DNA from: Lentimicrobiaceae bacterium
GTDB lineage: Bacteria > Bacteroidota > Bacteroidia > Bacteroidales > UBA4417
Length of the DNA stretch: 64,000 nucleotides
Assembly (NCBI GenBank): GCA_033809755.1
Contig: JAPXLB010000004.1
Span: forward strand, 3,030-67,029
Direction of reading: 5' to 3'
Under the pieces are notes generated by a model. The model saw nothing but the letters and a program-made list of their open reading frames with translations. It was not told the DNA's origin and ran no database searches. A program made the translations under genes and the position numbers. Below are positions 5,066 to 40,420 of the stretch, in pieces; position 1 is the first letter of the stretch; each line of letters opens with the position of its first letter.

Positions 5066-5150
5066 GATATTAATAATTCAAAAAACTGCTAATTCAAAGT
5101 CAGGCTATTCATTGAATTATGAGCACTACGTTTAGTTCCCAAAAAAGGTA

Positions 5151-5190
5151 TAAAAAAAATGGGCTGCCTTTGGTTTTCAGACAGCCCATT
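5151..5190 (-). terminator. Rho-independent terminator downstream of the SusE/F-like gene
   Basis: 9-bp stem aatgggctg (5158-5166) / cagcccatt (5182-5190). On the minus strand it is followed by a U-run (plus-strand A-run 5152-5159). Confidence 0.6.
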
Positions 5191-5213
5191 AGATAGATTT
5201 TTAAAATACAGTT

Positions 5214-6416: not shown

Positions 6417-6516
6417 TTTTTAAAATTTTAGTTAATAATAATTTTTTAATATTTAATTTATAAAGTCTTAATATTTTGCACAAAAATAATGCCAAACAAA
6501 AGGCTTTTATAAAGAT

Positions 6517-8004: not shown

Positions 8005-8027
8005 CTTAAATAGTTTTTAAATGTTGA

Positions 8028-11024
8028 TTAAAATTTAGCGTTCAATCCTATTGAAACTGTTCTTGTTTTGGGATATACGTTGTATTGGTCAACTCCGTAC
8101 GACAAGCCGTCGATAAAAGTTTCTGGGTCTATGCCCGAATATCCTGTAATAGTAAACAGGTTGTTTGCCATAATGCTAAGGTTCAGACCTTTAAGCCATT
8201 TTATTTTTTCAACGTTGAAGTTGTATCCAATAGCTAAGTAATCCAAACGTAAGAATGAAGCATCTTCAAGGTAATAATCCGAGAAAATTACACTTTGGTC
8301 GGTTCTGCCCTTTTCGTACCAGTCAATAGCGTCGGGCGTTCCGTTGATTGAAGGCATATTGCCGGGTACATCGAAGAACATTCTTGTAGCATTAAAGACT
8401 TTGTTTCCAATCATAGAACGGAAAGCCAAGTCAACAGTCCAATTGTTAAACAATACAAATGAGTTTGACCATCCAATTTCTAATACTGGAGTTGCCGAGC
8501 CAACGAACGATCTTTTTGCTTCGACCAAATTCGTTGTGTAACCGCCTGAAAGCGAACGATAAACTGGCTTGCCATCTAATATAGACACAAATTCGGGTAG
8601 ATAAAATTCGCCAAATCCATGTCCAACTGCAATACCTGTGACGTAATATTGAGCTCCAATCATACCTCTACCGGTAAGCCATCCTTCGTGTCTAACTCCT
8701 GATGAGTCGGTTGCAAATTCTCCCAAATCGGTGAATTTCGATTTATTGTGAGATGCCGTTAAACTTGTTTTCCACGAGAAATTTTTATTGTCGATAACAA
8801 AAGCTTGAACAAATAATTCAACACCTTTATTGGTAACTGCTCCCGAGTTAGCAAAAGTTGTAGAAGCCAAGTTTGGTGGTACGGGAACGCTATACTGACC
8901 AAGCAAGTCGGTAGTGTTTTTTGAATATAATTCGATACTACCGCTAATTCTGCTGTTGAAAATTGCGAAGTCAATACCCAAGTTGATTTCTGATGTTCTT
9001 TCCCATTTCAAATTAGGGTTAGAGTTCCAAGCGGGTTGGTAAGAAATTACTTGTTCGCCTGTTTCAGGATTAATAGCTAAACCGCTGGGAGTCCATGATA
9101 ATCTGCTTCTATATTCTCCAATAGCTTGGTTTCCTGATACTCCGTAGCTGGCACGCAATTTAAGTTGATTTAACCACGAAACATCTTTTAGGAAGTTTTC
9201 GTTTTGCATATTCCAACCTAAAGCAAATGTTGGGAAAAGACCCCATTTGTTGTTTTCTCCAAATTTGGTTGAGCCGTCTCTACGTAGCGACGCCGAAGCG
9301 TAGTATGTAGAGTTAAAGTTATATTGAGCTCTAACAAACATACCGATTAATCGTGACATTCCGCGGTAAGAGCCAATATCGCCGTATTTAATGTCAGCTA
9401 ATGAGGATAAATTTTCGGCTCCAATAAAAGGTGATTGCGCATTTGAACCTTGTGCCCAAAATCCGTTGTAGTTGTTTTCTTGCCACGAGTGCCCGCCAAT
9501 AAGGTCAAGATTGTGTTTGTCGAAGTTTTTAATGTAAGTTAGTGTAGTTTCAATGGTTTTTTGTTCGTTGTTGGTGTAACCGTGACGACCATAACCATCG
9601 TCGGCAGAAGCGTAAACTCCTTTAGGACGGAAATATTTTGAGTGGCTGTCGTTACGCAAATACGATGCATTAACCGATAAAGTTAGGTCGGAGATGATTT
9701 CGTAGTCAGCTCTTATATTACCCAAGTAGCTTTTTAGGTTTCTAACGTTGGTAATCATATCAATAACGGCAAGCGGATTTTCGTAGTTAAACTCCCTTTG
9801 AGTTTTGTTGTATGTGCCGTCGGGGTTATAAACAGGGTCGGTTGGGTTGTGCGAAATAGCTTGATAAATAATATCATCTTTATCGTACCCGTCGTAGTTT
9901 TCGTAGTCGTTATTTTCAAACGATGTCATAATATTACCCGACAGATTTAGTTTGTCGTTGAGAGCTTTGTGAGTAACATTAAGTTTGGCAGTTGTTCTTT
10001 CTTTTTCAGTTCCTTTCATAACACCTTGCCAGTTGGCGTGTGTAACTGATGCGTAGTAAGAGCTATTTTCGCTACCGCCGCTAAAATTAAGGTTGTTGTT
10101 TGTAGTAATTCCTATTCTGTATATTTCGTCTTGCCAATCGGTGTTAGCACCGCCGTCGGTAAATATACTGTCAACAGTCCAGTTTGGGTGTTCAGCAAGA
10201 CTGTTTTGTAATTTTTGATTTGCAAAATCTCTTAGTTCGGAAGCAGAAAGAACGTCTAATTTTTTAGCAACCTTATCGAAAGATACTTGTGAGCTAAAGC
10301 CTGTAACAGTAGCACCTTTTTTCGCCGAACCTTTTTTAGTCGTGATAAGTATAACGCCGTTTGCTCCTTGCGAACCGTAAATAGCCGTAGAAGCAGCATC
10401 TTTCAATACGTTATAAGTTTCAATATCGCCAGGGGCGATAGCGGTCGGGTCAGCATTAGGAACTCCATCTATCACATACAGTGGAGACGTGTTGGAGTCG
10501 AATCCGGCAGAACCCCTAATTTTTACAGCAAATCCGGCATTAGGGTCGCCACCTTTTTTGGTAATTAAAACTCCGGCTGCCTTACCTTGCATTGCTTGAA
10601 TAGGGTCGGTAAGAAGACCTTTGTTTAGTTCATCCGATGTTAGGTGTGTGATAGCACCGGTTTTATCTGTCTTCTTTTGAGTTCCATAACCTATAACCAA
10701 AACTTCGTCAAGGTCGGTAACAGCAGTTTTTAGAGCAACGTTTATAACATTGTTGTCCGCCACAATTTCCTGACTTTCGTAACCAATAAACGAAAACACC
10801 AAGGTTTCTCCCTTATTGACGCTTATGCTGTAGTTTCCGTCAATATCGGTTAATGTACCCAAAAAAGTATCTTTAACCTGAATGGTTACTCCGGGTATTG
10901 TTGAACCGTCTTTCGCATCGGTTACTACCCCTCTTACATCTAATTGTTGAGAAAAGCCACTGAAAGCAAATCCCAACAGCAGGAATATCAGTAAGGATGT
11001 TTTAAAGAGTATATATCTTTTCAT
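8028..11024 (-). CDS. susC: SusC-type TonB-dependent outer-membrane transporter
   Basis: 998-aa ORF with a signal peptide and a carboxypeptidase-regulatory-like domain (VRGVVTDAKDGSTIPGVTIQVK). It has a plug region (VIGYGTQKKTDKTGA), SusC-typical NLSGGSENS-like motifs, and a C-terminal aromatic residue (LNAKF). Confidence 0.9.
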   Translation of the reverse strand: MKRYILFKTSLLIFLLLGFAFSGFSQQLDVRGVVTDAKDGSTIPGVTIQVKDTFLGTLTDIDGNYSISVNKGETLVFSFIGYESQEIVADNNVINVALKTAVTDLDEVLVIGYGTQKKTDKTGAITHLTSDELNKGLLTDPIQAMQGKAAGVLITKKGGDPNAGFAVKIRGSAGFDSNTSPLYVIDGVPNADPTAIAPGDIETYNVLKDAASTAIYGSQGANGVILITTKKGSAKKGATVTGFSSQVSFDKVAKKLDVLSASELRDFANQKLQNSLAEHPNWTVDSIFTDGGANTDWQDEIYRIGITTNNNLNFSGGSENSSYYASVTHANWQGVMKGTEKERTTAKLNVTHKALNDKLNLSGNIMTSFENNDYENYDGYDKDDIIYQAISHNPTDPVYNPDGTYNKTQREFNYENPLAVIDMITNVRNLKSYLGNIRADYEIISDLTLSVNASYLRNDSHSKYFRPKGVYASADDGYGRHGYTNNEQKTIETTLTYIKNFDKHNLDLIGGHSWQENNYNGFWAQGSNAQSPFIGAENLSSLADIKYGDIGSYRGMSRLIGMFVRAQYNFNSTYYASASLRRDGSTKFGENNKWGLFPTFALGWNMQNENFLKDVSWLNQLKLRASYGVSGNQAIGEYRSRLSWTPSGLAINPETGEQVISYQPAWNSNPNLKWERTSEINLGIDFAIFNSRISGSIELYSKNTTDLLGQYSVPVPPNLASTTFANSGAVTNKGVELFVQAFVIDNKNFSWKTSLTASHNKSKFTDLGEFATDSSGVRHEGWLTGRGMIGAQYYVTGIAVGHGFGEFYLPEFVSILDGKPVYRSLSGGYTTNLVEAKRSFVGSATPVLEIGWSNSFVLFNNWTVDLAFRSMIGNKVFNATRMFFDVPGNMPSINGTPDAIDWYEKGRTDQSVIFSDYYLEDASFLRLDYLAIGYNFNVEKIKWLKGLNLSIMANNLFTITGYSGIDPETFIDGLSYGVDQYNVYPKTRTVSIGLNAKF

Positions 11025-11080
11025 AGATTTAATATTTAGTTAATAGTTGATTAATTAATTTTATTACGTGTTCATAATTG

Positions 11081-11088
11081 CAAATTTA
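11081..11088 (-). promoter_or_regulatory. Candidate Bacteroidota -7 promoter box (TAAATTTG on the minus strand) upstream of susC
   Basis: Plus-strand caaattta is the reverse complement of TAAATTTG and matches the TAnnTTTG consensus. It lies 57 nt upstream of the susC ATG. Confidence 0.35.
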
Positions 11089-11153
11089 TATATATTTTTC
11101 TAAAGTACGGTTCAATAATAAATTTAATTATTTTTTCCTGTTAAAAAAGTTAG

Positions 11154-13967
11154 TTACAAACAAATTATTTTTGTCGTTTTTTTGAAGTTTCCGACAGTTA
11201 ATTCCACGACATATAATCCTTTTTTTGGAGCTTGCCATTTAATGTTGTTGCTGCCCGACATCACTCCGTTGAATATATCACAAACGTAGCTGCCATCGAC
11301 AGAAAAGGCTCTTAAACTTACTTTGTTATTGTCTTTTACTTGTAATAAAATGTTTGCATCGCCGTGGGTTGGGTTAGGATAGATGCTAAAATTTAAAAGC
11401 GAACTTTCAGGGATTTTTTTTTCGTAAGGAAAATCGATTTTAATATCGGAGTATAGTTTATAATCGCCTGCGTTGAGCAATATACTTTGATTTACATTGT
11501 CGATTATTATCGTATCGCCCGAAAATAGCTCGAACCAAGTGCCTGTGCGCTGAAATACAACGTTGGCTGTTTGTTGAGTAACGTCGAAGTTGCCGACAAC
11601 GACAATATTGTTTGCGGTATCCGACAAGTGTATTGTTTTTATTTTTCCCAAAAGATTTACATCAAAATTATTGGTTTGGAAAACCGGATTATTTTTCTTC
11701 AAATTTATGAGCAAAGAGTTTATTTCAAACAGGTAACGTCTGTTTTTATCGTCGAAATAATCCCATCGTACAGGTTTTGGAGTTAGCCTATCGTTAGAAG
11801 TTCCCGACGGATAGTTTATAGAGAAATCGTATCCCAACTCACCGAATTGCCACAACATTTTAGGACCAGGAATAGTGTAGAAAAATGTAGATGCCAAAGC
11901 CGCACGTTTAAGAGCTGTAGCTGTATTTTTAATATCGTATCCTTGTTGCGAATTTCCCCATTTTTGGCAACGGTAAACCTGTCGTTCTTCGTCGTGGCTT
12001 TCCATGTAAGAAATAAGGTGTGGTTTTTGCCATCCCCTTTTTGTATAAACTCCCGATGATAAATCGCTGTTATTAACGTATCCCATCATGGCTTCGCCGT
12101 AGTTGTAGTTTATATTTCCCCACAAGAGCATTCCTTTGTCGGATAATATTCTCTCTTCCGTATTGTCGGCGAAATGTTCTAAAATGACGTAGGTATTTGG
12201 ATTGTACGCTTTGATAGTATCGCAATATTTTGAAAGGATATTTACACGTGATGGGTCATATTGAGCCATAGCAGCTGAATTGCCGAGAGTGTTTTTCTGT
12301 GTAAATCCTTTTGATAAATCGAAACGGAAGCCATCGAAATTAAACTCTTTTATGTAGTATTTCAAGGCATCGCTAACTAATTTGTTGGAGAAATCCGACT
12401 CGTGATTTATGTCGTAACCGACGTTAAAATCGTGTTTTGGTATTTGGTTATAAACAGGATTGTTTCCTGCGGGTCTGTTGTTTTTGGCATCCCAATACAG
12501 TTGAACGTAGGGAGCAGTACCAAACGAATGATTGAAAACTACATCTAAAATTACGGCTATGTCGTTATTGTGGCACGAATCAATGAGCTCTTTAAGTTTG
12601 TTTTGGTGACCGTAGTATTTATCAATTGCGAAATAGTAATTTGGATTGTAACCCCAACTGTCGTTGCCTTCAAACTCAGTAACAGGCATAAGTTCTATTG
12701 CATTTACTCCTAATTTATTCAGGTAAGGTATTTTATCAATAACCGATTGGAAAGACCTTTGTTCGGAAAAATCTCTGATTAGCAACTCATAAATGATCAA
12801 ATTTTGCACTTCGGGAGCTTTAAAACTGCAATTGCTCCAATTGTACACATCTGGTTTAATTTTTAATGAAGATGCAATACCGTTGGTTTTGCCGTGTGGA
12901 TATGGTTTTATGTTAGGATACGTAGAGTTGGGAATATACTTGTCGTTCCACGGGTCGGCGACTTTATTGCAGTACGGGTCGCCAATTCTTATATTTTCAT
13001 CGACTAAATATTGGTAATAATATTCCTTGTCATATTGGAGATTTGAGACCTGAAGCCAATAATATTTTCCATCGGGCGTTCGGTTCATTTTGTAGTCGGT
13101 ATCAGGCAGCCAATTATTAAAATCTCCTATGATGTACACATTGTTCTTATAAGGAGCAAACAACGAAAATACTACAGTAGTGGAATCAACTACGTTAACG
13201 CCATTTTTTATTCCGTCAGGCATAGCGGCAATATTAGTCGGTGTGCTAACAACGTAGAAAAGCGTATCGAAAAACGTTTCGTTAGCTTTAACACCTTTCG
13301 CAACTATTCTGTTTTGATTGTTGTTTTGCGGAACAATATTGCATTCTATTTCATTAAGAGTATTTGCTGCAACAAGTTCGCCGTTATGATAAATCAGTAT
13401 TGAATCGGTATTGATAGAAGCAGCTTTAATATTGATAATTTCGCCGTCAGGCACAAAAACAAAGTTGCCGTCGGGTTCTATAATTTTAATATTGATTGTA
13501 TTAGGATAGACATCATAAAAAATATCGCCATTGTTTTCTGTTTTACCTTCTAACCAAGCTCCCGAGACCATATTTGCACTTCTGAAAACAAAAGCCATTT
13601 GCAAAATCGTATCAGTCGTAGGTACAGAGTAATACGAGCGTATATCGGGTTGTATAGTTAATTTCCACAAGTTTTCACCTATTTTTATAAGTTTACAATC
13701 GGGAGTATTTGTGCCCCAATTTGCTTTAACGTATTTCCAATCGGAAGGGCTAACACTTTTGTTTGTAATTACTCCGGTATGAGCATAAACGTCTCCATCG
13801 TAGTTTTCAAGTCCTTTATTTCCGAGCGTAGCATCAAAAATCACTTCAACACTTTGTTGCTGAGTTGGTAATGGAGGATGAACATAAATTTGAGAATTTA
13901 GTAAGGAATTACAAAACAAAAAAAGCGAAAAAACTAAAACTCCCTTTTTTATTGAAACTATACGCAT
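11154..13967 (-). CDS. Secreted multidomain GH13 alpha-amylase/pullulanase-like enzyme with a T9SS C-terminal sorting domain
   Basis: 937-aa ORF with a signal peptide. GH13 regions are present: VILDVVFNHS, FDGFRFDLSKG, YVILEHF and YMESHDEE. The C-terminal ~80 aa (FSIYPNPTHGDANILLQV...YVVELTVGNFKKTTKIICL) is typical of a Por/T9SS secretion tail. Confidence 0.85.
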   Translation of the reverse strand: MRIVSIKKGVLVFSLFLFCNSLLNSQIYVHPPLPTQQQSVEVIFDATLGNKGLENYDGDVYAHTGVITNKSVSPSDWKYVKANWGTNTPDCKLIKIGENLWKLTIQPDIRSYYSVPTTDTILQMAFVFRSANMVSGAWLEGKTENNGDIFYDVYPNTINIKIIEPDGNFVFVPDGEIINIKAASINTDSILIYHNGELVAANTLNEIECNIVPQNNNQNRIVAKGVKANETFFDTLFYVVSTPTNIAAMPDGIKNGVNVVDSTTVVFSLFAPYKNNVYIIGDFNNWLPDTDYKMNRTPDGKYYWLQVSNLQYDKEYYYQYLVDENIRIGDPYCNKVADPWNDKYIPNSTYPNIKPYPHGKTNGIASSLKIKPDVYNWSNCSFKAPEVQNLIIYELLIRDFSEQRSFQSVIDKIPYLNKLGVNAIELMPVTEFEGNDSWGYNPNYYFAIDKYYGHQNKLKELIDSCHNNDIAVILDVVFNHSFGTAPYVQLYWDAKNNRPAGNNPVYNQIPKHDFNVGYDINHESDFSNKLVSDALKYYIKEFNFDGFRFDLSKGFTQKNTLGNSAAMAQYDPSRVNILSKYCDTIKAYNPNTYVILEHFADNTEERILSDKGMLLWGNINYNYGEAMMGYVNNSDLSSGVYTKRGWQKPHLISYMESHDEERQVYRCQKWGNSQQGYDIKNTATALKRAALASTFFYTIPGPKMLWQFGELGYDFSINYPSGTSNDRLTPKPVRWDYFDDKNRRYLFEINSLLINLKKNNPVFQTNNFDVNLLGKIKTIHLSDTANNIVVVGNFDVTQQTANVVFQRTGTWFELFSGDTIIIDNVNQSILLNAGDYKLYSDIKIDFPYEKKIPESSLLNFSIYPNPTHGDANILLQVKDNNKVSLRAFSVDGSYVCDIFNGVMSGSNNIKWQAPKKGLYVVELTVGNFKKTTKIICL

Positions 13968-17233: not shown

Positions 17234-17245
17234 ATTAATTATTTA

Positions 17246-17280
17246 TATTGATTAAAGTCCAAAATTAAAAAAATATTTAT
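17246..17280 (-). promoter_or_regulatory. Shared promoter/leader module, copy A (contains -7 box TAATTTTG on the minus strand)
   Basis: tattgattaaagtccaaaattaaaaaaatatttat matches 18512-18546 with 2 mismatches. Plus-strand caaaatta at 17260-17267 is TAATTTTG on the minus strand. Confidence 0.5.
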
Positions 17281-17339: not shown

Positions 17340-18473
17340 CTAAATTTTTAGCAATAATTCTTCTAAATCTTTTTCAAGATTGTCATTATATCCATTTATT
17401 ATTGATATTATTTTATTATCGCTTGCATTATACAACACAAAAATAGGATAACCTTTGTCGCTTAGATTTTTAAAAAAGCCCCTCTTTGAAGGAATAACAA
17501 TAGGCATAGTTACATGCATTTTATCAGCAAATTTCTTTATTTTTTCTATATCATCATCAACTTCATTAATACTATAAAAAGCTATTCTATCTTTATATTT
17601 CTCATAAAGTTTTTCAACAATTGGAGCGGCTCGCATGCATGGCATGCAACCGGCATACCAAACATCGACAAATACATAACCTTGTTTAGGTAACATAACT
17701 TTGTTCTTGTTTATATCTGTAAAGGTAACATCTTTAAAATCAATAAACATATCTGAACTTATTTGAGTATCATCAGAAATAACAACAATTTCATCTTGTC
17801 TTTCTTCATAAATTATTTCGTATGGATAATAAAAGTTTGTATTTATTGGTTCAAAGCTGTAATTACTAAAGGTATAACCCTGAAATTGCATTCCAATGTT
17901 ATTTATATATTTAATTTGAAGATAATATCGGTCAATAACATTATTTATTGTGTCAAGATATGTAACATAATCAATATCTTCAATCATTTCCGGAAATGAT
18001 TGACTATTGTGTTTTAGTAGTACATTTCTGCCGTTACTTCCAATTTTTTTATAGGAATCTTGACCGTAATACTTTACAACTGTAGTATCAAAAAAAATAC
18101 TTCCTATTGGAAAAAAATCAATTATTGCTCCATAACCTGCAACATCATTTCTCCCACCAATATATCTAATTTGTTTTTCTTTATGAACAATTTGCCATAT
18201 TGAATCATTTTTAAGTATGTATTCTATATTATTACTAATATCATTTATCCTAAAGAAAGCCACCTTATTGCCATTTTTGACTAACTGAACTTTAGCACTT
18301 TTTGCGGTAGTGTCATTCTCAAATAAATTTAATTTCTTTACTGTAATTTCGTATGAAAGGAATTTTTTTTCAATAATATTTTTCGAATACTCGTAAATAT
18401 AATTCTTATTTTGTCCTATTACTAATATTTGTGTCGCAAACAAATATGCTAGAATAATTATTTTTTTTCCCAT
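17340..18473 (-). CDS. Secreted TlpA/redoxin-like thiol-disulfide oxidoreductase with a large N-terminal domain of unknown function
   Basis: 377-aa ORF with a signal peptide. The C-terminal thioredoxin fold carries a CxxC motif (VWYAGCMPCMRAAP). Confidence 0.65.
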   Translation of the reverse strand: MGKKIIILAYLFATQILVIGQNKNYIYEYSKNIIEKKFLSYEITVKKLNLFENDTTAKSAKVQLVKNGNKVAFFRINDISNNIEYILKNDSIWQIVHKEKQIRYIGGRNDVAGYGAIIDFFPIGSIFFDTTVVKYYGQDSYKKIGSNGRNVLLKHNSQSFPEMIEDIDYVTYLDTINNVIDRYYLQIKYINNIGMQFQGYTFSNYSFEPINTNFYYPYEIIYEERQDEIVVISDDTQISSDMFIDFKDVTFTDINKNKVMLPKQGYVFVDVWYAGCMPCMRAAPIVEKLYEKYKDRIAFYSINEVDDDIEKIKKFADKMHVTMPIVIPSKRGFFKNLSDKGYPIFVLYNASDNKIISIINGYNDNLEKDLEELLLKI

Positions 18474-18511
18474 CTGTAATTTTTTTTGTTTTTAATACGA
18501 AAAATATTTTG

Positions 18512-18546
18512 TATTGATTAAAGTCCAAAGTTAAAACAATATTTAT
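18512..18546 (-). promoter_or_regulatory. Shared promoter/leader module, copy B (contains -7 box TAACTTTG on the minus strand)
   Basis: tattgattaaagtccaaagttaaaacaatatttat. Plus-strand caaagtta at 18526-18533 is TAACTTTG on the minus strand. Confidence 0.5.
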
Positions 18547-18677: not shown

Positions 18678-19460
18678 ATGTATAATCGGAACATACATTG
18701 CCAAGAAAGGTATTACACTTCTTTCGACGTGGACTTTGTAGAAAACCGCGGTCAGAACTACGTGCTGCCGGAGGATTACGAGTGGATTCCCAAAAAGAAA
18801 TCTCAAATAAGGAAACAAAAATGGGCATATTTGCTTGCAAGGATTTTCGCCTACTTTTACTGTAAGTTCAGATTACACATTACAGTGGTCGGGAAGGAGA
18901 AAATAAGAGATGTAGGGAAGTCGGGTTTTTTCTTGTATGGAAATCACACCTTGGCGATGGGCGATGTATTCCTACCTGCTCACGTCTGCGGTAGTAAGAG
19001 AGTTTTCATCGTCGCAGATACAGCTAACCTTGGTATCCCCGTGGTAGGAAAATGGTTACCCTGCTTGGGTGCTTTACCAATACCCAGTGGGATTAAAGCA
19101 ATGGCAAAATTTTGTGCGGCTATTAATACTAGGATAGAGCAGGGCTGTTGTGTTACTTTATATCCTGAGGCTCACCTGTGGCCCTACTGTACCTTTATCC
19201 GTCCTATGAGCCGAACTGCATTTCGTTTTCCGGTCGAAAACCGAGTGCCCTCTTTCACGCTTTCAGTTACCTTTCAAAAAAGACGTTTCGGTAAGAAACC
19301 AAGAATCACGGCTTTTGTCGATGGTCCAATAGTTCCCGATGCGAACTTAACACTTAGAGAGCAATCAGCTGACCTGCAAAGCAAGGTAATGAAAACAATA
19401 AAAGACCGTTTAATTGCGAATACGTACACCTATGTTAACTATATAAAATCACCATTATGA
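18678..19460 (+). CDS. Divergent LPLAT/PlsC-superfamily acyltransferase
   Basis: 260-aa ORF. The motif-I-like GNHTLAMGD has atypical His-Asp spacing. LYPEAHLW is motif-III-like. The stop overlaps the next start (ATGA). Confidence 0.6.
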   Translation: MYNRNIHCQERYYTSFDVDFVENRGQNYVLPEDYEWIPKKKSQIRKQKWAYLLARIFAYFYCKFRLHITVVGKEKIRDVGKSGFFLYGNHTLAMGDVFLPAHVCGSKRVFIVADTANLGIPVVGKWLPCLGALPIPSGIKAMAKFCAAINTRIEQGCCVTLYPEAHLWPYCTFIRPMSRTAFRFPVENRVPSFTLSVTFQKRRFGKKPRITAFVDGPIVPDANLTLREQSADLQSKVMKTIKDRLIANTYTYVNYIKSPL

Positions 19461-20308
19461 ATGTATTATACTGTGGCGATAAGAATATTGAGGATGGTCT
19501 CATCATATCTGTGCTTTCTCTTATCGAGCATACGAAAGAGGAGCTTAACGTGTATGTGATGACAGCCCAATTTTCGTACAAGAATAAAGAGTACCTCAAG
19601 GTTGGCGAGGATACTATTTCAATTCTTAGGCAATACCTAAAAAAAGCTAACCAGTTGAGTGACATTAAACTATTAGACATAACGCAACTTTTCAAATCCG
19701 AATTACCTACTGCTAACATGAGAACGCGTTTCACACCTTGCTGCATGTTGCGTCTATTGGCTGATCGCGTAGAAGAATTGCCCGATAAGTTGCTTTACCT
19801 TGATAACGACGTAGTTTGTCGGAAGAGCATTGACGAATTTTACAATCAAGATATATCTGATGTTGAATTCGTCGGCATCCTCGACCATTACGGTAGTTGG
19901 TTATTTAGGAAGAAACCCTTTAAACGCAATTATGTCAATTCCGGCGTATTGCTTATGAACCTTTCAAAAATCCGAGAAACCGGATTATTTAAGAAAGCGT
20001 TGCAACGATGCAAGGAGAAAAGGATGTTTATGCCCGACCAAACTGCCATAAATCATTATGTTACAGAAAAGCGACTCGCAGAGAGAAAATTCAACGAGCA
20101 GCGAAGGATGCGTGCTGATACGGTAATGCGGCACTACACCACCACGTTCCGATTTTTCCCATGGTTCCATCATGTTTATGTTAAACCCTGGCAAATTGAT
20201 CGTATGCATAAGATCCTCAAAGATTACGAATTTGATCACCTGTTTCAGGAATACTCTAAGATTAAGATGTCAATAGTTGGATGTGAACAAAGTTATAATA
20301 TTAACTGA
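19457..20308 (+). CDS. Glycosyltransferase family 8 (retaining, LPS glucosyl/galactosyltransferase-like)
   Basis: 283-aa ORF with LLYLDNDVVC (DxD), VNSGVLLMNL and HHVYVKPW (the GT8 C-terminal H..KPW signature). Confidence 0.8.
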   Translation: MNVLYCGDKNIEDGLIISVLSLIEHTKEELNVYVMTAQFSYKNKEYLKVGEDTISILRQYLKKANQLSDIKLLDITQLFKSELPTANMRTRFTPCCMLRLLADRVEELPDKLLYLDNDVVCRKSIDEFYNQDISDVEFVGILDHYGSWLFRKKPFKRNYVNSGVLLMNLSKIRETGLFKKALQRCKEKRMFMPDQTAINHYVTEKRLAERKFNEQRRMRADTVMRHYTTTFRFFPWFHHVYVKPWQIDRMHKILKDYEFDHLFQEYSKIKMSIVGCEQSYNIN

Positions 20309-20394: not shown

Positions 20395-21354
20395 ATGGAA
20401 TCCAAAAATTTAATCCCCGTGTTTTTTGCTATTGATGACGCATACGCGCCCTTGCTTGGTGTGGCGTTAAAATCAATCATCATTAATGCTTCAAAGAAGA
20501 GAAACTACAAAGTCATTATTATTCAAGAGAATGTTAGTGATACTAACCAGCGTAAATTGTTATCACTTGCCAACGAGAATTTTGATATAGAAATCATATC
20601 AATGGGCAAATCGTTAGAAAATATTACCGACCGCAGCGAGAATAGACTTCGATGTGACTATTTCACGATGACCATCTTCTTTAGATTGTTCATTCCTGAA
20701 ATGTTTCCGGAATACGATAAGTGTCTTTACTTAGACAGCGACATCGTAGTTCCCGGTGATATATCCGAGCTGTATGACACTGACGTACAAAACTACCTTA
20801 TCGCTGCTTGCCCCGACTACTCATCCTCCGACGTACCTCCGCTCATCAATTGGATGGAAAACGCCGTCGGGGTTGATCGGCACAAATACGTTAATTCGGG
20901 TATCTTGGTAATGAACCTGAAGAAGTTGCGTGAAGTGAAACTTGAGGAACACTTCATGCATTTGCTCAACACCTACCACTTTGATTGCATTGCACCCGAC
21001 CAAGATTACTTGAACGCAATGTGCAAGGGGCAGATTTTCTTTCTTGATGAATCGTGGGACGTTATGCCTAACCCGCGAAGGAAGGAGCATCCTGCGCCAA
21101 AGCTTATCCATTACAACCTGTTTGAAAAACCATGGTGCTACGATAATATTCAATATGCCGATTATTTCTGGAAGTACGCCGAAATGAGCGATTTCTATGC
21201 ACAAGTAAAGGAGATAAAAGATAACTACAGTGAGGAACAAAAGCTTCGTGACGAGCAAAGTTTCAATCTGCTCATTCAAAAAGCTAAAACCGTCCCCGAC
21301 ACCGGAGTAACTTTCGTAAAAATGGGCAAAGAGAACGTAAAGATAAAGCTATGA
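20395..21354 (+). CDS. Glycosyltransferase family 8
   Basis: 319-aa ORF with IPVFFAIDDAYAP, CLYLDSDIVVPGD (DxD), VNSGILVMNLKKLRE and IHYNLFEKPW. Confidence 0.85.
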   Translation: MESKNLIPVFFAIDDAYAPLLGVALKSIIINASKKRNYKVIIIQENVSDTNQRKLLSLANENFDIEIISMGKSLENITDRSENRLRCDYFTMTIFFRLFIPEMFPEYDKCLYLDSDIVVPGDISELYDTDVQNYLIAACPDYSSSDVPPLINWMENAVGVDRHKYVNSGILVMNLKKLREVKLEEHFMHLLNTYHFDCIAPDQDYLNAMCKGQIFFLDESWDVMPNPRRKEHPAPKLIHYNLFEKPWCYDNIQYADYFWKYAEMSDFYAQVKEIKDNYSEEQKLRDEQSFNLLIQKAKTVPDTGVTFVKMGKENVKIKL

Positions 21355-22205
21355 ACGATATAGATGGAAATCCGGTAATTTGCAATATCCGCAATGCAGT
21401 TGAAAAGGGATTGTTTCACGTCAAAGTGGAAGTGGGAGAGCCTGAATTTAATGCTGATGAGAAACGTGAAATTATCGAGAAATACTCGAAAGAACGAGAA
21501 ACAATGTCTTATTGGGTTAAAAATCGCATTGTTTGCATAGCTCAAAATGTGGTGTCTTTGTTGAGAAACATCAATACTAAGTATATTGGCATTGAAAACA
21601 CAAAAACGCTGGGAGACACGGGCGCAATTGTTACTAGTAATCATTTTAACCCGTTGGAAAACACTGCCATCTTCCGTGTGATAAAAAAAATAGGACGTCG
21701 AAAAAAAATGTATGCCATCAGTCAGGTATCGAACTTCAAAATGACGGGAATCATCGGCTTCTTATTGCGTTACGCTAATGTAATTCCAATCAGCAAGGAT
21801 TCTACGGAGTACATGTGCGAGAAATTTCCTGACCATGTTCAAATGGTGCTAAAAAAGGGCAATTTCATCCTCATGTATCCGGAGCAAGAAATGTGGCGCA
21901 ATTATCGTAAGCCTCGTCCATTGAAGTTGGGAGCTTATTTTTATGCTGCTAAATTTAATGTGCAGATTTTGCCTTGTTTCGTGGAGATACGTGATGAGCG
22001 TACTTTGTTCGGTATTTGGAATACGCGATATTTCGTTCATATACTGCCTGTCATAACCCCCAATCCGGAGTTAGATATAAAAACTGATGCTAAGCGCATG
22101 TTGCTCATCGATTACGAGCAGAAAAAAAATGCTTACGAGCGAGCATACGGACGACCCTTGGATTACACTTTTGACGCTTCGGATATTGCAGGAGGCATAA
22201 AATGA
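21351..22205 (+). CDS. Divergent LPLAT/PlsC-superfamily acyltransferase
   Basis: 284-aa ORF with TSNHFNPLEN (HX4E variant of motif I) and MYPEQEMW (motif III-like). Both neighbouring gene junctions are ATGA overlaps. Confidence 0.6.
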   Translation: MNDIDGNPVICNIRNAVEKGLFHVKVEVGEPEFNADEKREIIEKYSKERETMSYWVKNRIVCIAQNVVSLLRNINTKYIGIENTKTLGDTGAIVTSNHFNPLENTAIFRVIKKIGRRKKMYAISQVSNFKMTGIIGFLLRYANVIPISKDSTEYMCEKFPDHVQMVLKKGNFILMYPEQEMWRNYRKPRPLKLGAYFYAAKFNVQILPCFVEIRDERTLFGIWNTRYFVHILPVITPNPELDIKTDAKRMLLIDYEQKKNAYERAYGRPLDYTFDASDIAGGIK

Positions 22206-25200
22206 TACATGTAGGTATAGACATCGGGTCAACCACGGTTAAAATTGCCGCGATATCACCAACGGATAACAAATTGTTATACAAGAAATACGTCAGGCAT
22301 CATTCTCTGCAGGTTCGTACGTTAATAGAATTGTTAGACAACTTTCACGATGAATTCCGGTCGGAAACATGTAAAGTTGCAATTTGCGGTTCAGGTGGGA
22401 AACCCATCGCTGAGAAATTACGCGTTCCGTTCATTCAAGAGGTAGTTGCCAATGCCAACGCTGTCTGTTACTTGTACCCTGAAACCCGAACTGCGATTGA
22501 GCTTGGGGGACAGGATGCCAAGGTCATCTTTTTTTACCGAGACGAACACGACGGTCAACCAAAGGTATCAGATATGCGTATGAATGGTAATTGTGCCGGC
22601 GGCACGGGTGCCTTTATTGATGAAATAGCCCAATTACTTGATGTTCAAACTTCGGAATTTGATGCGCTCGCAGCCCAAGCTTCCAGAGTTTATGATATTT
22701 CAGGTCGTTGTGGCGTGTTTGCCAAGACAGATATCCAGCCCTTATTGATTCAAGGGGCAGCCCATGCCGACATTGCCCTTTCTACGTTTCATGCGATAGC
22801 GAAGCAAACAATCGGGGGACTTTCACAAGGTCTTGAGATTACTCCTCCTATTATTTTCGAAGGTGGACCCTTAACTTTCAACAAACAGTTGGTGAGAGTC
22901 TTCGTGGAACGGCTCCAACTTAAGGGAAATGATATCATCGTTCCGAAATACCCTGAAATTATCGTTGCCTATGGTGCTGCTCTTTCCATTGATAGACTCC
23001 AGAATGATAAGACCGATAATAGCTTCACGATAGATGAACTTCTAAAAAAATTAAGAAACATAGAGAGCGAAATCAGAATATCAACTAATGAGCCTCCTTT
23101 CTTTGATACTGAAAAAGATTACGCCGAATTCGCCGAAAGGCATGACAAAGAGTTGCGTGAAAATGCGATAGCAACTCCTCAAAACGGTATATTAGACGTT
23201 TACCTTGGCATAGATTCGGGTAGCACTACCTCTAAGTTTGTGCTCATAAATGAAGAAGAACAAGTGATTGAACGCTTTTACGCACCCAATTTAGGCAAAC
23301 CTTTGGACGTATTGAAGCGGGGACTGACGGAAGTTTACGGCAAGTACAAAAAGCAAGGCATTGAGTTGAACGTTAAGGGGTTTGGCAGTACGGGCTACGG
23401 TGAATTGATGACGGCAAACGCGTTAGGGGCAGATTATCACATCGTTGAGACAGTCGCACATGCTCAAGCTGCCTTACATTATTACCCCGACACCACATTC
23501 CTTTTAGATATTGGAGGACAGGACATGAAAGCCATATGGATTGATAACGGAGTGATAACCAATATTATGCTAAATGAAGCCTGCTCTTCGGGTTGCGGTT
23601 CTTTCCTTGAGAATTTCGCTGTTACGATGAAGATTCCGGTGGAAGAGATTGGTGCAGCTGCATTTCGCTCAACATCCCCGGCTAAGTTGGGAAGCCGTTG
23701 TACGGTTTTTATGACCAGTAGCATCGTAACCGAGCAACGCAACGGTAAGTCGCCGGACGATATCATGGCTGGTCTATGCCGTTCCATCATAGAGAATGTC
23801 TTCACTAAGGTGGTTAGGATTAACAATACCGATAGCTTGGGTAATAAAATTGTAGTACAGGGAGGTACTTTTCGAAATCGTGCGGTGCTGCGTGCCTTTG
23901 AAGAATACCTTGGCAAGGAGGTGCGACTTGCGCCATACCCGGGAGAGATGGGTGCAGTCGGTGTCGCCTTGCTCACGAAACAGCATATTGAGAAGTTAGG
24001 GTGCGTAGCTGAAAATAGTAGCAATTTCATAGGTTTCGACGAATTGAAAAGTTTTGACTATGTAACTGAGTCGGGTGTGCCATGTCCGCATTGTGCTAAT
24101 CATTGCTTACGAACCATAATCCGTTTCCCGAAAGGAAAAGCTTGGGTAACCGGAAACAAGTGCGAACGTGGGGCTGAACTTACCGACGGGAAAAAAGACA
24201 AAAAATTGAAGGTAAAAAAAACCGAAAGAAGTGCGACAGACCTTTTCTCAAAAAGAGCGAGGATGTTATTTGAGCCATACCCTTGTGAAAATGTGTCGAA
24301 CCAAAAAAGAGAAATTGTGGGCTTGCCCCGCACGTTGGAATTCTGGAACAGTATGCCGTTTTGGAGTACTTTCTTTAAAGCATTGGGATTCAAAACGTTG
24401 TTCTCAAACCCTAGCGATCAAGAAATCTACGAGAAAGGTCTTCAGTTTGTGGCATCCGATACTATATGTTTTCCGGCTAAGATGGTACACGGGCATATCG
24501 AAAACCTTGCCGAAAAAGGTGTCGACCGCGTATTCCTGCCTTATGTGATGCATTTGCCACCTGAGGGCGTGGACAAGTTAAGTCCCTACGTCTGTTCCAT
24601 CATCATGGGATATTCCATGGTAGTCAGAAATACGCAAGATCCGGCAAAAAGGCATAGTATTCACTTAGATACACCTATATTTCACTGGTTTTCAGAAAAA
24701 GACAGAATTCGACAAATTTGCGATTTCGCCGTTGAAAGTCTAAATGTTAGCCGAAAGGAGGCAAAACAAGCTTACCTATCAGCCCTAAACTCTATGACAA
24801 CATTTAAAACTATGCTCCGCTCCGAAGCTGAACGCCTTATACAGGAAGCTGAACGTGCGAACAAAACGGTTATTGTTTTAGCCGGTCGACCTTATCACAG
24901 TGACCCGTTTATTTCGCACAATGTTACCAAGTTCTTTATTGAAAAAGGACTCTCCGTTATCCCTGTAGATGCTTTACCCGGCTTAGAAGAAGTGGATTTA
25001 CGCCATACTAACATTGAGATTACTAACAACTTCCACACGAGGATGCTAGCGGGGGCTGTTATAGCAGCACAAAACCCGGCGCTCGAATACGTACAATTGG
25101 TCAGTTTTGGATGTGGGCACGATGCTGTACTCTCCGACGAGATTGTTCGCATAATGAAATGTTGCGGTAACAAATCTCCATTAATCCTAAAAATTGATGA

Positions 25201-26551
25201 AAGCGAGGCAAGCGGTTCTTTACGCATTCGTATCCAATCGTTCATAGAAACCATTACCAATCATAAGAATAGTACGATTCCTGCGAGCACTCTACCAGCA
25301 CCAAATCCTGTGAAATTTTATAAAAAAGACAAACAAAAACGTACGGTATTGATTCCCAACATTTCTGCAGAAATGATGATATTGATGGATGCTATCTTAG
25401 AGAAGAAGGGCTTTAGAGTACAGAGGGTTCCTGTGGGTGGTAAGCGACAAATCAGTTTAGGTAAGAAGTACGTACACAACGACATTTGTTTCCCGTGCCA
25501 AATGGTTATAGGTGAGTTGATAGCTGCGTTGCAGGACGGCAACTATCGTAGCGATGAGGTGGCAGTGGGTATGGTGAAGTTTCAATGCGACTGTCGGCTA
25601 TCGCACTATGCCGGCTTACTGCGTAAAGGACTCGATGCGGCGGGCTTCAACGATGTGCCCATTATTACTACCGATGTGAATGACACTAAAGAGAATAATC
25701 CCGGCATAACGTTGTTGAGTCTGCCGGCTATTTTTGAAGTCGCAAACAGCTTTATGATGTTGGATATTATAAATGAGCTTTGTCGGAAAATCCGTCCGTA
25801 CGAACTTCGTGCCGGCGATACAGACCAATGGCTGCAAAAAAGCATCCGAAGTATTGCTAAAGCTATTAATGATGGTATTTTAGCCGCCAGAGAAACTTTT
25901 AAGCAATGTATCAACGAGCTAAAACATATTAAATACAATAGAGAGAGACCTAAACCGAGAGTTTTCGTAACGGGTGAGTTGTTAGTAACGTACCATCCGG
26001 GGTCTAATTTTAACATAGAACGTTATCTTGAAAAAACGGGCATGGAAACCATTTTCCCACGCTTTACCGACCAGCTAAGGAAAGATTTTTTAGCACAAGT
26101 GTGGCAAAAACGAGATTTTAAGGCAGACGTGCCACGTTATCCGTACTTGGTTACGTGGCTGTTCAACAACACGCAACGCTCTCTTGAAAATATTGCTGTT
26201 GCTCATCCATTGTTTCAAAAGACCCTTAGTCCGGCAAAGTTATACGAAGATGTAAAAGAAATCATCCCGGGAACGTTAAGTTGTGGCGAAGGTTGGCTAA
26301 TGGCGGCAGATATAATGCATTATGCTAAACAAGGCGTAACCTCGCACATTATTTTGCAACCCTTTGGCTGTCTGCCGAACCACGTGTGCGGTAGAGGCGT
26401 GATAAAAAAGTTAAAGGAGTGTTGTCCCGACATTTCTATTTTACCGCTTGACCTCGACCCTGACACAAGCTACGCAAATATAGAGAACCGACTACAAATG
26501 TTAATTATGAACATGCAATATAGCACAAAAAATGCTTACCTTTGCAAATAG
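22202..26551 (+). CDS. Fusion of two BcrAD/BadFG (HgdC-like) activase ATPase domains with DUF2229 and HgdB/2-hydroxyacyl-CoA-dehydratase-like modules; BCR/HAD-type radical enzyme resembling anaerobic plasmalogen synthase PlsA/PlsR
   Basis: 1449-aa ORF. Domain 1 has VGIDIGSTTVKIA, NGNCAGGTGAFIDE and SGRCGVFAKTD. Domain 2 has LGIDSGSTTSKFV, NEACSSGCGSFLE and GSRCTVFMTSS. A Cys motif CPHCANHC follows, then a DUF2229-like part (GLPRTLEFWNSMPFWSTFFKALGF...DTICFPAKMVHGH) and a second HAD-like part (VHNDICFPCQMVIGE...FQCDCRLSHY...QPFGCLPNHV). Confidence 0.85.
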   Translation: MIHVGIDIGSTTVKIAAISPTDNKLLYKKYVRHHSLQVRTLIELLDNFHDEFRSETCKVAICGSGGKPIAEKLRVPFIQEVVANANAVCYLYPETRTAIELGGQDAKVIFFYRDEHDGQPKVSDMRMNGNCAGGTGAFIDEIAQLLDVQTSEFDALAAQASRVYDISGRCGVFAKTDIQPLLIQGAAHADIALSTFHAIAKQTIGGLSQGLEITPPIIFEGGPLTFNKQLVRVFVERLQLKGNDIIVPKYPEIIVAYGAALSIDRLQNDKTDNSFTIDELLKKLRNIESEIRISTNEPPFFDTEKDYAEFAERHDKELRENAIATPQNGILDVYLGIDSGSTTSKFVLINEEEQVIERFYAPNLGKPLDVLKRGLTEVYGKYKKQGIELNVKGFGSTGYGELMTANALGADYHIVETVAHAQAALHYYPDTTFLLDIGGQDMKAIWIDNGVITNIMLNEACSSGCGSFLENFAVTMKIPVEEIGAAAFRSTSPAKLGSRCTVFMTSSIVTEQRNGKSPDDIMAGLCRSIIENVFTKVVRINNTDSLGNKIVVQGGTFRNRAVLRAFEEYLGKEVRLAPYPGEMGAVGVALLTKQHIEKLGCVAENSSNFIGFDELKSFDYVTESGVPCPHCANHCLRTIIRFPKGKAWVTGNKCERGAELTDGKKDKKLKVKKTERSATDLFSKRARMLFEPYPCENVSNQKREIVGLPRTLEFWNSMPFWSTFFKALGFKTLFSNPSDQEIYEKGLQFVASDTICFPAKMVHGHIENLAEKGVDRVFLPYVMHLPPEGVDKLSPYVCSIIMGYSMVVRNTQDPAKRHSIHLDTPIFHWFSEKDRIRQICDFAVESLNVSRKEAKQAYLSALNSMTTFKTMLRSEAERLIQEAERANKTVIVLAGRPYHSDPFISHNVTKFFIEKGLSVIPVDALPGLEEVDLRHTNIEITNNFHTRMLAGAVIAAQNPALEYVQLVSFGCGHDAVLSDEIVRIMKCCGNKSPLILKIDESEASGSLRIRIQSFIETITNHKNSTIPASTLPAPNPVKFYKKDKQKRTVLIPNISAEMMILMDAILEKKGFRVQRVPVGGKRQISLGKKYVHNDICFPCQMVIGELIAALQDGNYRSDEVAVGMVKFQCDCRLSHYAGLLRKGLDAAGFNDVPIITTDVNDTKENNPGITLLSLPAIFEVANSFMMLDIINELCRKIRPYELRAGDTDQWLQKSIRSIAKAINDGILAARETFKQCINELKHIKYNRERPKPRVFVTGELLVTYHPGSNFNIERYLEKTGMETIFPRFTDQLRKDFLAQVWQKRDFKADVPRYPYLVTWLFNNTQRSLENIAVAHPLFQKTLSPAKLYEDVKEIIPGTLSCGEGWLMAADIMHYAKQGVTSHIILQPFGCLPNHVCGRGVIKKLKECCPDISILPLDLDPDTSYANIENRLQMLIMNMQYSTKNAYLCK
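26537..26544 (+). promoter_or_regulatory. Candidate internal -7 box TACCTTTG just upstream of tetR
   Basis: Matches TAnnTTTG. It lies 28 nt upstream of the ATG at 26572, inside the last codons of the 1449-aa gene. Confidence 0.3.
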
Positions 26552-26571
26552 ATATACAAGCACGAGATATA

Positions 26572-27195
26572 ATGAAGAATAATTCACCAAATACTGAATT
26601 TCAGATACTTGCATCAGCAGAAAAACTTTTCCTTGAAAAAGGATTTAGAGGCGCATCTACCACCGAGATTGCTAAGGATGCAGGTTGTAATCAAGCCCTA
26701 GTACATTATTATTTTCGCACTAAGGAAAACCTGTTTCAAAAAGTCTTCTTGAGGAAGTTCGAATACCTTTTGGAACAAATTAAGATACCTTTGGAAAAGG
26801 AGACAGACTTTTTCTCAAAATTGGAAAATATGGTTGAAGTGTACTTTAACTTTATGATAAAGAACCCTACGATTCCTTACTTCATATTCAATGAACTGAA
26901 TAGCAACCCAAAACGAAGGAGACAACTTCGAGATTGGCTCATAAAGAGACCTAATCTGGAAGAAGTTTTTCTAAAGTTTGCCGCTTCGGTAGAAGATGCT
27001 AAATCACAAGGACTAATTCGCGACATCAGTCCTTCAAATCTACTCATGAATATAGGCTCACTCGTAATTTCCACATTCCTTATGGCTCCTATTATCACTG
27101 ATTTACAAGATTTGGATCAATCCCACACTGTTGACTTTATTGTCTATCGAAAAAAAGAAGTGCTGACACAACTATTCCAAGGTTTACGAGTATAG
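26572..27195 (+). CDS. TetR/AcrR family transcriptional regulator
   Basis: The helix-turn-helix region reads ILASAEKLFLEKGFRGASTTEIAKDAGCNQALVHYYFRTKENLF. The track ORF begins at a TTG (26542), and I prefer the ATG at 26572. Confidence 0.85.
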   Translation: MKNNSPNTEFQILASAEKLFLEKGFRGASTTEIAKDAGCNQALVHYYFRTKENLFQKVFLRKFEYLLEQIKIPLEKETDFFSKLENMVEVYFNFMIKNPTIPYFIFNELNSNPKRRRQLRDWLIKRPNLEEVFLKFAASVEDAKSQGLIRDISPSNLLMNIGSLVISTFLMAPIITDLQDLDQSHTVDFIVYRKKEVLTQLFQGLRV

Positions 27196-40345: not shown

Positions 40346-40420
40346 GGTCAGAGGTCGGTGTTTTTTGGAGGCGAGTCCTTTCACTCTTCACCCATCACTC
40401 ATCACTCATCACCTTTCACC
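40346..40420. repeat. Heptamer repeat arm (CACCCAT/CACTCAT) plus T-run plus TCCTTTCACTCTTCAC box, on the right flank of the four-helix-bundle gene
   Basis: ggtcagaggtcggtg tttttt ggaggcgagtcctttcactcttcacccatcactcatcactcatcacctttcacc. It abuts the stop codon of the phosphoglucomutase gene. Confidence 0.7.

Follow-up and report, generated by a model that had tools for sequence, protein, structure and literature searches.

The gene at the center of the 64,000-nucleotide (nt) window analyzed here encodes a protein of 1449 amino acids (aa) that is very probably a single-chain member of the PlsA/PlsR-Ger group, that is, an anaerobic ether-lipid synthase, and it is the fifth gene of an operon that apparently came from Clostridia. 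Its membership of the PlsA/Ger family can be stated with high confidence. A first-pass annotation of this DNA had described the protein as all components of a benzoyl-CoA reductase/2-hydroxyacyl-CoA dehydratase (BCR/HAD)-type enzyme fused in one polypeptide.

The gene is a single uninterrupted open reading frame (ORF; 22202..26551, + strand) with an ATG start and no internal stop codon. The reading frame is intact, and the interruption for which the annotation had allowed was not seen. Its domain parsing holds: two activase-type ATPase domains (Act1 and Act2) are followed by a cysteine knot and two reductase/dehydratase-type modules (Red1 and Red2). All of the motifs that it quoted are present, namely NGNCAGGTGAF (C131), SGRCGVFAKTD (C170), NEACSSGCGSF (C461/C465), and GSRCTVFMTSS (C500), and, toward the C-terminus, CPHCANHC (C628/631/635), DTICFPAKM (C756), and NDICFPCQM (C1096). 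Pfam assigned two BcrAD_BadFG domains (PF01869, E = 3e-77) and one DUF2229 domain (PF09989, aa 706-924, E = 2e-69). The NCBIfam model TIGR00241 (acyl-CoA dehydratase activase) scored 308 bits against a cut-off of 125.

In a search of Protein Data Bank (PDB) sequences, DCCP-R (7yyl_E) matched aa 4-261 and 1hux_A matched aa 334-593, with HgdC (1hux), HadI (4eht), and MbdQ/MbdP (9gai) all matching within aa 334-599. In the HMMER alignment, C461 and C500 align gap-free with HgdC residues 127 and 166, which, following Locher et al. (2001), we take to be the ligands of its bridging [4Fe-4S] cluster. The C131-C170 spacing is 39 residues, as for C461-C500. The phosphate-binding motifs DxGSTTxK and GGQD occur in both ATPase domains and are nearly invariant among homologues. 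Both domains therefore show what characterizes the ASKHA ATPases of the BCR/HAD/DCCP superfamily, including two cysteines placed for an inter-domain [4Fe-4S] cluster.

A profile search of PDB sequences gave nothing for the C-terminal part beyond the ATPase matches. An AF2 model of this part (aa 596-1449, 854 aa), built on a 62-sequence alignment, reached a mean pLDDT of 84.8 and a pTM of 0.82. The best four Foldseek matches in the PDB were DCCP, the double-cubane cluster protein (7yyl_B, 6eno), and BzdNO, which is the catalytic module of a benzoyl-CoA reductase (8s02_A, 8s2r_C), with probabilities of at least 0.99. Their E-values were modest (3e-4 to 2e-3), and the TM-scores were 0.36-0.45 because the query contains two modules. 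The model thus points to a BCR-type fold, as in the catalytic modules of the BCR/HAD/DCCP superfamily. The Foldseek matches, together with the conserved cysteines described below, dispose of the possibility, raised in the annotation, that the C-terminal part lacks a HAD/BCR-type fold or cluster cysteines.

The description of this part as two DUF2229/HgdB-like halves stood only in part. DUF2229 and the BCR-type fold were found; the likeness to HgdA/B was not recovered by sequence. PF06050 (HGD-D) gave no match on the whole protein or on the separated halves at E-values up to 10, and the PDB sequences yielded no match to HgdA/B, HadB/C, or BcrBC. HAD structures were absent from the top 50 Foldseek matches. 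The C-terminal halves are hence not recognizably HgdA/B-like by sequence, and their nearest folds are DCCP and BzdNO. A sub-threshold DUF2229 match around NDICFPCQM in the last 406 residues (28.1 bits versus a cut-off of 29.4) and an hhalign comparison of aa 700-1040 with aa 1041-1449 (probability 92%, E = 5e-7) indicate that Red1 and Red2 are diverged copies of each other. Red2 is equivalent to the separate PlsR of the split systems.

The cysteines were followed through an alignment of 89 full-length homologues spanning two deep clades. C131, C170, C461, C465, C500, C628, C631, C635, C654, C756, C798, C971, C1096, and C1131 are each retained in 88 of the 89, and C1390 in 87. The four-cysteine knot between the ATPase and reductase parts is probably a metal site, either for Zn or for an extra Fe-S cluster; it matched no Pfam family, and in the AF2 model it forms a small three-stranded element (pLDDT 65-80). 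Each Red module holds three invariant cysteines (3 + 3), and HadBC binds one [4Fe-4S] cluster per subunit through three cysteines (PMC7317905). We weighed this pattern against the possibility that the enzyme is a double-cubane [8Fe-9S] reductase like DCCP, with a small molecule as its substrate. In Foldseek, the Red module matches DCCP best (7yyl_B, 6eno), Act1 matches DCCP-R (7yyl_E), and 3 + 3 invariant cysteines could in principle ligate two cubanes (PMC7317905). However, DCCP forms homodimers from one type of ~420-aa chain, with the 7-Cys motif contained in that chain, and its physiological substrate is unknown (PMC7317905), whereas the six cysteines of the window protein are split over two diverged, homologous modules, as in HadB/HadC. 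The DCCP match is modest (E = 3e-4), the match to BzdNO is equally good, and the functional data for the family indicate lipids. Such an activity is therefore highly improbable.

The fused architecture proved to be ordinary. In a word-indexed search, all 8000 of the 8000 scored candidates had E <= 1e-10, giving at least 8000 homologues; the best 120 of these range from 1413 to 1722 aa in length, and for most of them the alignment spans 96-100% of the query. An exhaustive search with the 854-aa Red module covered 1.84 billion representatives at 50% identity and returned 517 that reached E <= 1e-30 and 2373 that reached E <= 1e-10. Among the best 150, 57 of the 77 representatives with a full module have at least 560 residues preceding it and are thus fused. 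The ORFs at all 80 retrieved genome loci, from Clostridia, Spirochaetes, Coriobacteriia, and others, span ~1170-1700 codons, the shortest lying on truncated contigs. The single-chain form is the dominant architecture of the family, and the fusion is not the unusual feature that the first-pass annotation saw in it. It has been in the literature since 2020, when a review described 'archerase' ATPases fused to their catalytic subunits (PMC7317905), and B-B-D is the published PlsA/Ger architecture (PMC13159169, PMC12838417). In itself, the all-in-one fusion therefore matters little: it is the normal form of PlsA/Ger synthases, which have already been tied to the plasmalogens of gut anaerobes.

The plsA-plsR operon of Clostridium perfringens gives plasmalogen synthesis in Escherichia coli, and elsewhere one gene often encodes both parts. 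Single genes from E. faecalis K-4 (4248 bp), L. cremoris (4311 bp), and B. longum subsp. suis (4920 bp) also gave plasmalogens in E. coli; their products are drawn as Act1-Act2-Red1-Red2, with 48-55% and 41-42% identity to C. perfringens PlsA and PlsR, respectively (PMC12838417). The window protein has the same Act1-Act2-Red1-Red2 order as PlsA/PlsR (CPE1194/1195, split, in C. perfringens; EF1327 in E. faecalis). In size it is similar to the published single-gene PlsA proteins (4248-4920 bp, ~1415-1640 aa), and the Fe-S cysteines are conserved. Like PlsA/PlsR, it is present in anaerobes, including Bacteroidota; ~15% of the sequenced Bacteroidota have homologues (PMC10191378), and B. thetaiotaomicron contains phosphatidylethanolamine plasmalogens (PMC10056535). 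Listeria possesses plsA and plsR orthologues that are apparently active under anaerobiosis (PMC9702350). The L. monocytogenes orthologue shows 33-34% identity across 99% of the query and has all of the cluster cysteines in common with it, and a split pair from Fusobacterium (975 + 404 aa) shows 36% identity, with its break at the Red1/Red2 boundary. When the Listeria protein itself served as the query, the best 120 matches all came from Listeria, Paenibacillus, and Bacillaceae. The Act-Act-Red-Red architecture of PlsA/PlsR-Ger, which occurs as one chain of ~1400-1650 aa or as a split of ~975 + 400 aa, is thus present in full, and the alignment against PlsA/PlsR that the first-pass annotation had suggested was the correct lead. 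That annotation had called the substrate unknown. The substrate class is known for the family: it is the sn-1 acyl ester of membrane glycerolipids, which family members have been shown experimentally to turn into vinyl or alkyl ethers. The neighboring genes for lipid and sugar transferases, which had appeared puzzling, are consistent with a lipid-modifying enzyme. Two translationally coupled LPLAT-type acyltransferase genes lie upstream in the operon and a downstream TetR gene overlaps the plsA-like gene, a context that is supportive but not defining.

In a neighbor-joining tree, the proteins of Listeria, Paenibacillus, and Fusobacterium form one clade (clade A), and the window protein falls into another (clade B) with those of Clostridia, Spirochaetes, Coriobacteriia, and Haliovirga. 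Each of the three whole chromosomes inspected (Listeria, F. vincentii, and Acetoanaerobium) has one Red-module gene, which fits one function served by alternative versions in different genomes better than it fits paralogues residing together, although a sample of three chromosomes is tiny.

Several points weigh against the assignment as an ether-lipid synthase. The window protein stands apart from clade A, to which its identity is 33-36%, and the homology test ran through the Listeria protein as a proxy (33-34% identity, a different clade) rather than through the validated enzymes. We found no published phenotype or product for any member of clade B. PF06050 fragments, which have been reported in Ger and PlsA, were not detected in the window protein with Pfam. 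PlsA and Ger are at present inseparable by sequence (PMC13274423), and the ether-lipid product in this host is itself read from the sequence.

The nature of the ether is connected with the last of these points. Ger is a 'modified PlsA' found in T. maritima and D. alkenivorans with the Pfam order B-B-D plus small further fragments, and its products, formed under anaerobic conditions only, are 1-O-alkyl glycerol ethers (PMC13159169). The window protein might likewise be a Ger-type glycerol ester reductase whose end product is a saturated ether lipid, with the alkyl group at 1-O and possibly also at sn-2. It has the same B-B-D core as Ger (Tmari_0479; SHJ90043), which also acts on the sn-1 ester, and the two-activase (BB) plus D architecture is that of both the T. 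maritima and the D. alkenivorans enzymes (PMC13159169). The authors of those studies tentatively tied the two activation domains to alkyl-ether production (PMC13159169, PMC13274423), and both ATPase domains of the window protein have intact nucleotide motifs. However, BB is not diagnostic of Ger, since Act1 and Act2 are also drawn for the plasmalogen synthases that were validated from E. faecalis, L. cremoris, and B. longum (PMC12838417), and an assignment to Ger by sequence is not yet possible (PMC13274423). Compared by description, Ger differs in making saturated alkyl ethers and in having small PF06050 fragments C-terminally, of which none was detected here. A Ger-type end product is thus rather unlikely, and the vinyl ether appears to be the likelier product, although the matter is not settled.

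The names given to such proteins in databases ('acyl-CoA dehydratase activase' and '2-hydroxyacyl-CoA dehydratase') and the similarity to HgdC, HadI, and the BCR ATPase subunits could instead suggest an acyl-CoA dehydratase or reductase that carries its own activase and works on a CoA thioester, either in a fermentation pathway or in the breakdown of aromatics. The scores for the benzoyl-CoA reductase equivalogs (BcrA/BcrD/BzdQ) were far under their cut-offs (TIGR02259, 162.6/578; TIGR02261, 117.5/312.85; TIGR03192, 110.1/380.2), and neither PF06050 nor any sequence match to HgdAB, HadBC, or BcrBC was found. The features of a 2-hydroxyacyl-CoA dehydratase (HgdAB/HadBC) are thus lacking, as are those of a class I benzoyl-CoA reductase. 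The neighborhood consists of a starch polysaccharide utilization locus and genes for glycolysis and DNA repair, with none for fermentation or aromatic degradation. As the first-pass annotation had observed, a CoA-ester fermentation context is absent; no CoA-transferase, acyl-CoA dehydrogenase, or aromatic-degradation gene lies nearby. Furthermore, all family members of this architecture that have been tested use glycerolipids as substrates (PMC12838417, PMC13159169). A CoA thioester is accordingly a most improbable substrate.

For the window protein as a PlsA/Ger-type synthase, the cluster types, the electron path, the substrate, and the product are what we infer from BCR/HAD enzymes and from the published PlsA proposal, in which the sn-1 ester undergoes two sequential one-electron reductions and is then protonated and dehydrated (PMC8788747). 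The N-terminal ATPase domains would pair within the chain, like the HgdC dimer or a BcrA/BcrD heterodimer, and C131/C170 together with C461/C500 would be the ligands of a single [4Fe-4S] cluster held between them. Ferredoxin or flavodoxin would supply this bridging cluster with an electron, and ATP hydrolysis would then drive it, at very low potential, into the Fe-S site(s) of Red1-Red2, possibly via the four-cysteine knot, which may serve as an additional relay cluster or bind Zn in a structural role. There, the carbonyl of the sn-1 acyl ester of a membrane glycerolipid would receive two successive one-electron reductions and undergo protonation and dehydration. The product would be a 1-alk-1'-enyl (vinyl ether, plasmalogen) lipid, possibly reduced further to a saturated alkyl ether in the manner of Ger.

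Two electrons would be consumed per ester-to-ether turnover, as in benzoyl-CoA reductase, and a permanent coupling of ATPase and reductase would therefore be expected. The first-pass annotation had contrasted the fusion with activators that touch their catalytic subunits only transiently. This description is right for the dehydratases, but not for the class I benzoyl-CoA reductases, which have been solved as multi-subunit assemblies. For that reason, the obligate stoichiometric coupling implied there is not new; PDB entry 9gai already carries MbdQ and MbdP chains. The class I benzoyl-CoA reductases (BcrABCD, BzdNOPQ, MbdONQP) resemble the window protein in having two different HgdC-like ATPases, two homologous catalytic subunits, and stoichiometric ATP-coupled electrons. 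Unlike it, they consist of four separate polypeptides and use an aromatic CoA thioester. The HgdAB + HgdC and HadBC + HadI systems share with the window protein a 1hux/4eht-like ATPase, two equivalent cluster cysteines, and three cysteines per catalytic module. However, their activator is a separate, catalytic homodimer and the electron is recycled, whereas here the activator is fused and the electrons are presumably consumed. By analogy, the stoichiometric benzoyl-CoA reductase assemblies (9gai) would be the natural comparison, and the catalytic, transient activation of the dehydratases would be a less apt one.

The plsA-like gene is part of a six-gene, same-strand array, AT1-GT8a-GT8b-AT2-plsA-tetR (Table 1), in which four of the five junctions overlap. 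The stop codon of AT2 overlaps the start of plsA, and the end of plsA and the beginning of tetR share 10 nt. The array is bounded upstream by an AT-rich, divergent intergenic region of 200 bp and downstream by a convergent NUDIX gene.

Table 1. Genes of the six-gene array and domains of the plsA/ger-like gene product, with positions in the window.
Feature	Position	Strand	Description	Evidence
AT1	18678..19460	+	LPLAT-type acyltransferase, 260 aa, HX5D variant, no transmembrane (TM) helix	PF01553, E 1e-4
GT8a	19457..20308	+	Family 8 (retaining) glycosyltransferase	PF01501, E 2e-17
GT8b	20395..21354	+	Family 8 glycosyltransferase	PF01501, E 2.5e-48; PDB WbbM GT8 domain, LgtC
AT2	21351..22205	+	LPLAT-type acyltransferase, 284 aa, HX4E variant, no TM helix	PF01553, E 1e-11; TIGR00530 domain
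plsA/ger-like gene	22202..26551	+	Single-chain ATP-dependent glycerolipid ester reductase (predicted)	Intact ORF; Pfam and NCBIfam matches; at least 8000 homologues
Act1	22205..22981	+	First BcrAD/HgdC-type ASKHA ATPase domain, aa 2-260, invariant C131 and C170	TIGR02261, aa 2-260; PDB 7yyl_E, aa 4-261
Act2	23201..23980	+	Second ATPase domain, aa 334-593, invariant C461, C465, and C500	PF01869, best stretch aa 335-591; 1hux_A, E 2e-34
Four-Cys knot	24062..24181	+	aa 621-660, C628-x2-C631-x3-C635 ... C654	Cys conservation; AF2 model
Red1	24299..25321	+	First reductase/dehydratase-type module, aa ~700-1040, DUF2229, invariant C756, C798, and C971	PF09989, E 2e-69; Foldseek DCCP/BzdNO
Red2	25322..26548	+	Second, diverged module copy, aa 1041-1449, invariant C1096, C1131, and C1390	Weak DUF2229 match; hhalign versus Red1
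tetR	26542..27195	+	TetR/AcrR-family regulator	PF00440, E 2e-13

The overlapping PlsA-TetR pair recurs in a Petrimonas metagenome-assembled genome (MAG; L001), in the metagenome contigs L087, L124-126, and L127, and in Collinsella aerofaciens (L082, TetR at 10412-11101), a genus that we take to be strictly anaerobic. A review assigns the pls-adjacent TetR regulator to facultative, not strict, anaerobes (PMC9702350). A TetR gene also adjoins pls in E. faecalis (PMC9702350); that of the window lies downstream and overlaps, rather than upstream. The acyltransferase/GT8 cassette is without mention in the published descriptions of pls genes that we found.

A scan for promoters and terminators, with a tool that has no model of Bacteroidota promoters, found no more sites in the operon than in shuffled sequences. 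An AT-rich direct repeat of 44 nt (17237-17280 and 18503-18546, 89% identical) brackets a thioredoxin-like gene (17340-18473), with the second copy in the intergenic stretch that precedes the cassette. The repeat may act as a common regulatory element or terminator.

The order AT1-GT8a-GT8b-AT2-PlsA is kept in the window, in the Petrimonas MAG, and in four Clostridia MAGs (L002, L003, L027, and L078). The neighboring gene products are 40-87% identical across these, and those of the Clostridia MAGs are 40-58% identical to the window's. The cassette was also found on L087, and L127, the 5' end of which is cut, carries AT2-PlsA-TetR. Three JGI metagenome contigs (L124-126) have the rearranged order GT8a-GT8b-AT2-PlsA-AT1-TetR (~5056-13654 in L124). 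Their PlsA is 58% identical to the window's and sits inside the module, not after it, so that the linkage survives the rearrangement.

Despite these cases, an AT2-centered metagenome scan indicated that the four-gene AT1-GT8a-GT8b-AT2 module is usually autonomous. In a very common human-gut lineage (36 of the 68 retrieved loci), the module follows an alpha/beta-hydrolase gene and has copper-homeostasis genes downstream and no adjacent PlsA. Human-gut metagenome contigs that carry the module on its own include L088, L090, L098, and L103. PlsA adjoins AT2 in 7 of the ~17 AT2 lineages overall and in ~2 of 11 in the unbiased metagenome sample, and the module is absent beside most clade-B PlsA genes.

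The cassette raises the question of whether this PlsA is specialized for its own neighbors: AT1, AT2, GT8a, and GT8b would make or remodel a glycosylated glycerolipid, and PlsA would either convert this lipid into the alk-1-enyl form or supply that form, so as to yield a glycosyl plasmalogen rather than a bulk phospholipid plasmalogen. The conserved gene order in the window, Petrimonas, and the four Clostridia MAGs, the linkage kept in L124-126, and the overlapping genes all speak for this specialization. Gram-positive anaerobes contain glycosyldiradylglycerols with a large 1-alk-1'-enyl fraction, most of which are structurally uncharacterized (PMC9702350). On the other hand, the module occurs mostly without an adjacent PlsA, and most clade-B PlsA genes occur without the module. 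The GT8 proteins resemble alpha-galactosyl- and glucosyltransferases of lipopolysaccharide (LPS), lipooligosaccharide, and O-antigen synthesis, and AT1 and AT2 lack a TM helix and have non-canonical HX4D motifs. To our knowledge, GT8 enzymes have no established role as lipid glycosyltransferases. We consider the specialization doubtful, and the glycolipid link a reasonable but unproven hypothesis. In its most extended form, the six-gene unit would encode a pathway, transferable as a whole, to a glycosylated ether lipid, e.g., a diglycosyl 1-alk-1'-enyl-2-acyl-glycerol, a PlsA subclade would have become dedicated to what an otherwise autonomous module produces, and the unit would have moved from Clostridia to Dysgonomonadaceae (Bacteroidota). 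This scenario is equally tentative, and we would not expect it to hold. If true, it would provide the first set of genes for the glycosyl plasmalogens that anaerobes make and that are structurally uncharacterized, and GT8 enzymes would gain their first role in lipid synthesis. The recurring linkage of PlsA with the acyltransferase/GT8 genes is, in any case, a testable lead to glycosyl-plasmalogen genes.

With respect to the origin of the cassette, the host is a Bacteroidota member, as indicated by a SusC/SusD/SusE-F starch utilization locus (3338-13967) that includes an amylase with a C-terminal sorting domain of the type IX secretion system (T9SS). The closest genome match is the Petrimonas sp. 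MAG, which has a PlsA with 80% identity and all six genes arranged as in the window, between different flanks. The next relatives are Clostridia MAGs (58-62% identity), and the window/Petrimonas pair nests inside them in the neighbor-joining tree. The GC content of the plsA-like gene (22001-26000) is 43-45%, as compared with ~37% for the whole window and ~34-40% for the rest of it; this excess would fit either a foreign origin or a conserved gene under strong constraint. The SusC/SusD-type Bacteroidota host, the Petrimonas match, the nesting among Clostridia, and the GC content of plsA together suggest that a Bacteroidota genome acquired the cassette horizontally from Clostridia. Signs of mobile elements around the cassette were limited to one tRNA-Val, far away, and there were no flanking repeats of note. 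Three loci labeled Alloprevotella, Bacteroidaceae, and Prevotella (L064, L070, and L075) were considered as a second transfer into Bacteroidales and rejected: they have 60-62% GC, nest in Eggerthellaceae, and are probably mis-binned Coriobacteriia contigs.

The value of these findings is modest. It lies in the likely acquisition by Bacteroidota, from Clostridia, of a plsA together with four lipid/sugar transferase genes, and in a deep clade B for which we found no validated product, at a time when the question of vinyl versus alkyl ethers is open in the field.

Two further fusion ORFs occur elsewhere in the window. At the end of the Sus locus, a 1013-aa ORF (106-3147, - strand) joins an N-terminal HAD-family hydrolase (beta-phosphoglucomutase-like) to a GH65 glycoside phosphorylase. 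A 1410-aa ORF (42201-46433, - strand) was considered as a paralogue of the plsA-like gene and rejected as an unrelated glycogen synthase/phosphorylase fusion. In it, a glycogen synthase (PF05693, with GT1-type domains) is fused to DUF3417 and an alpha-glucan phosphorylase, and its product would combine enzymes of glycogen synthesis and degradation in one chain. A phosphoglucomutase gene (40420-42159) adjoins this ORF.

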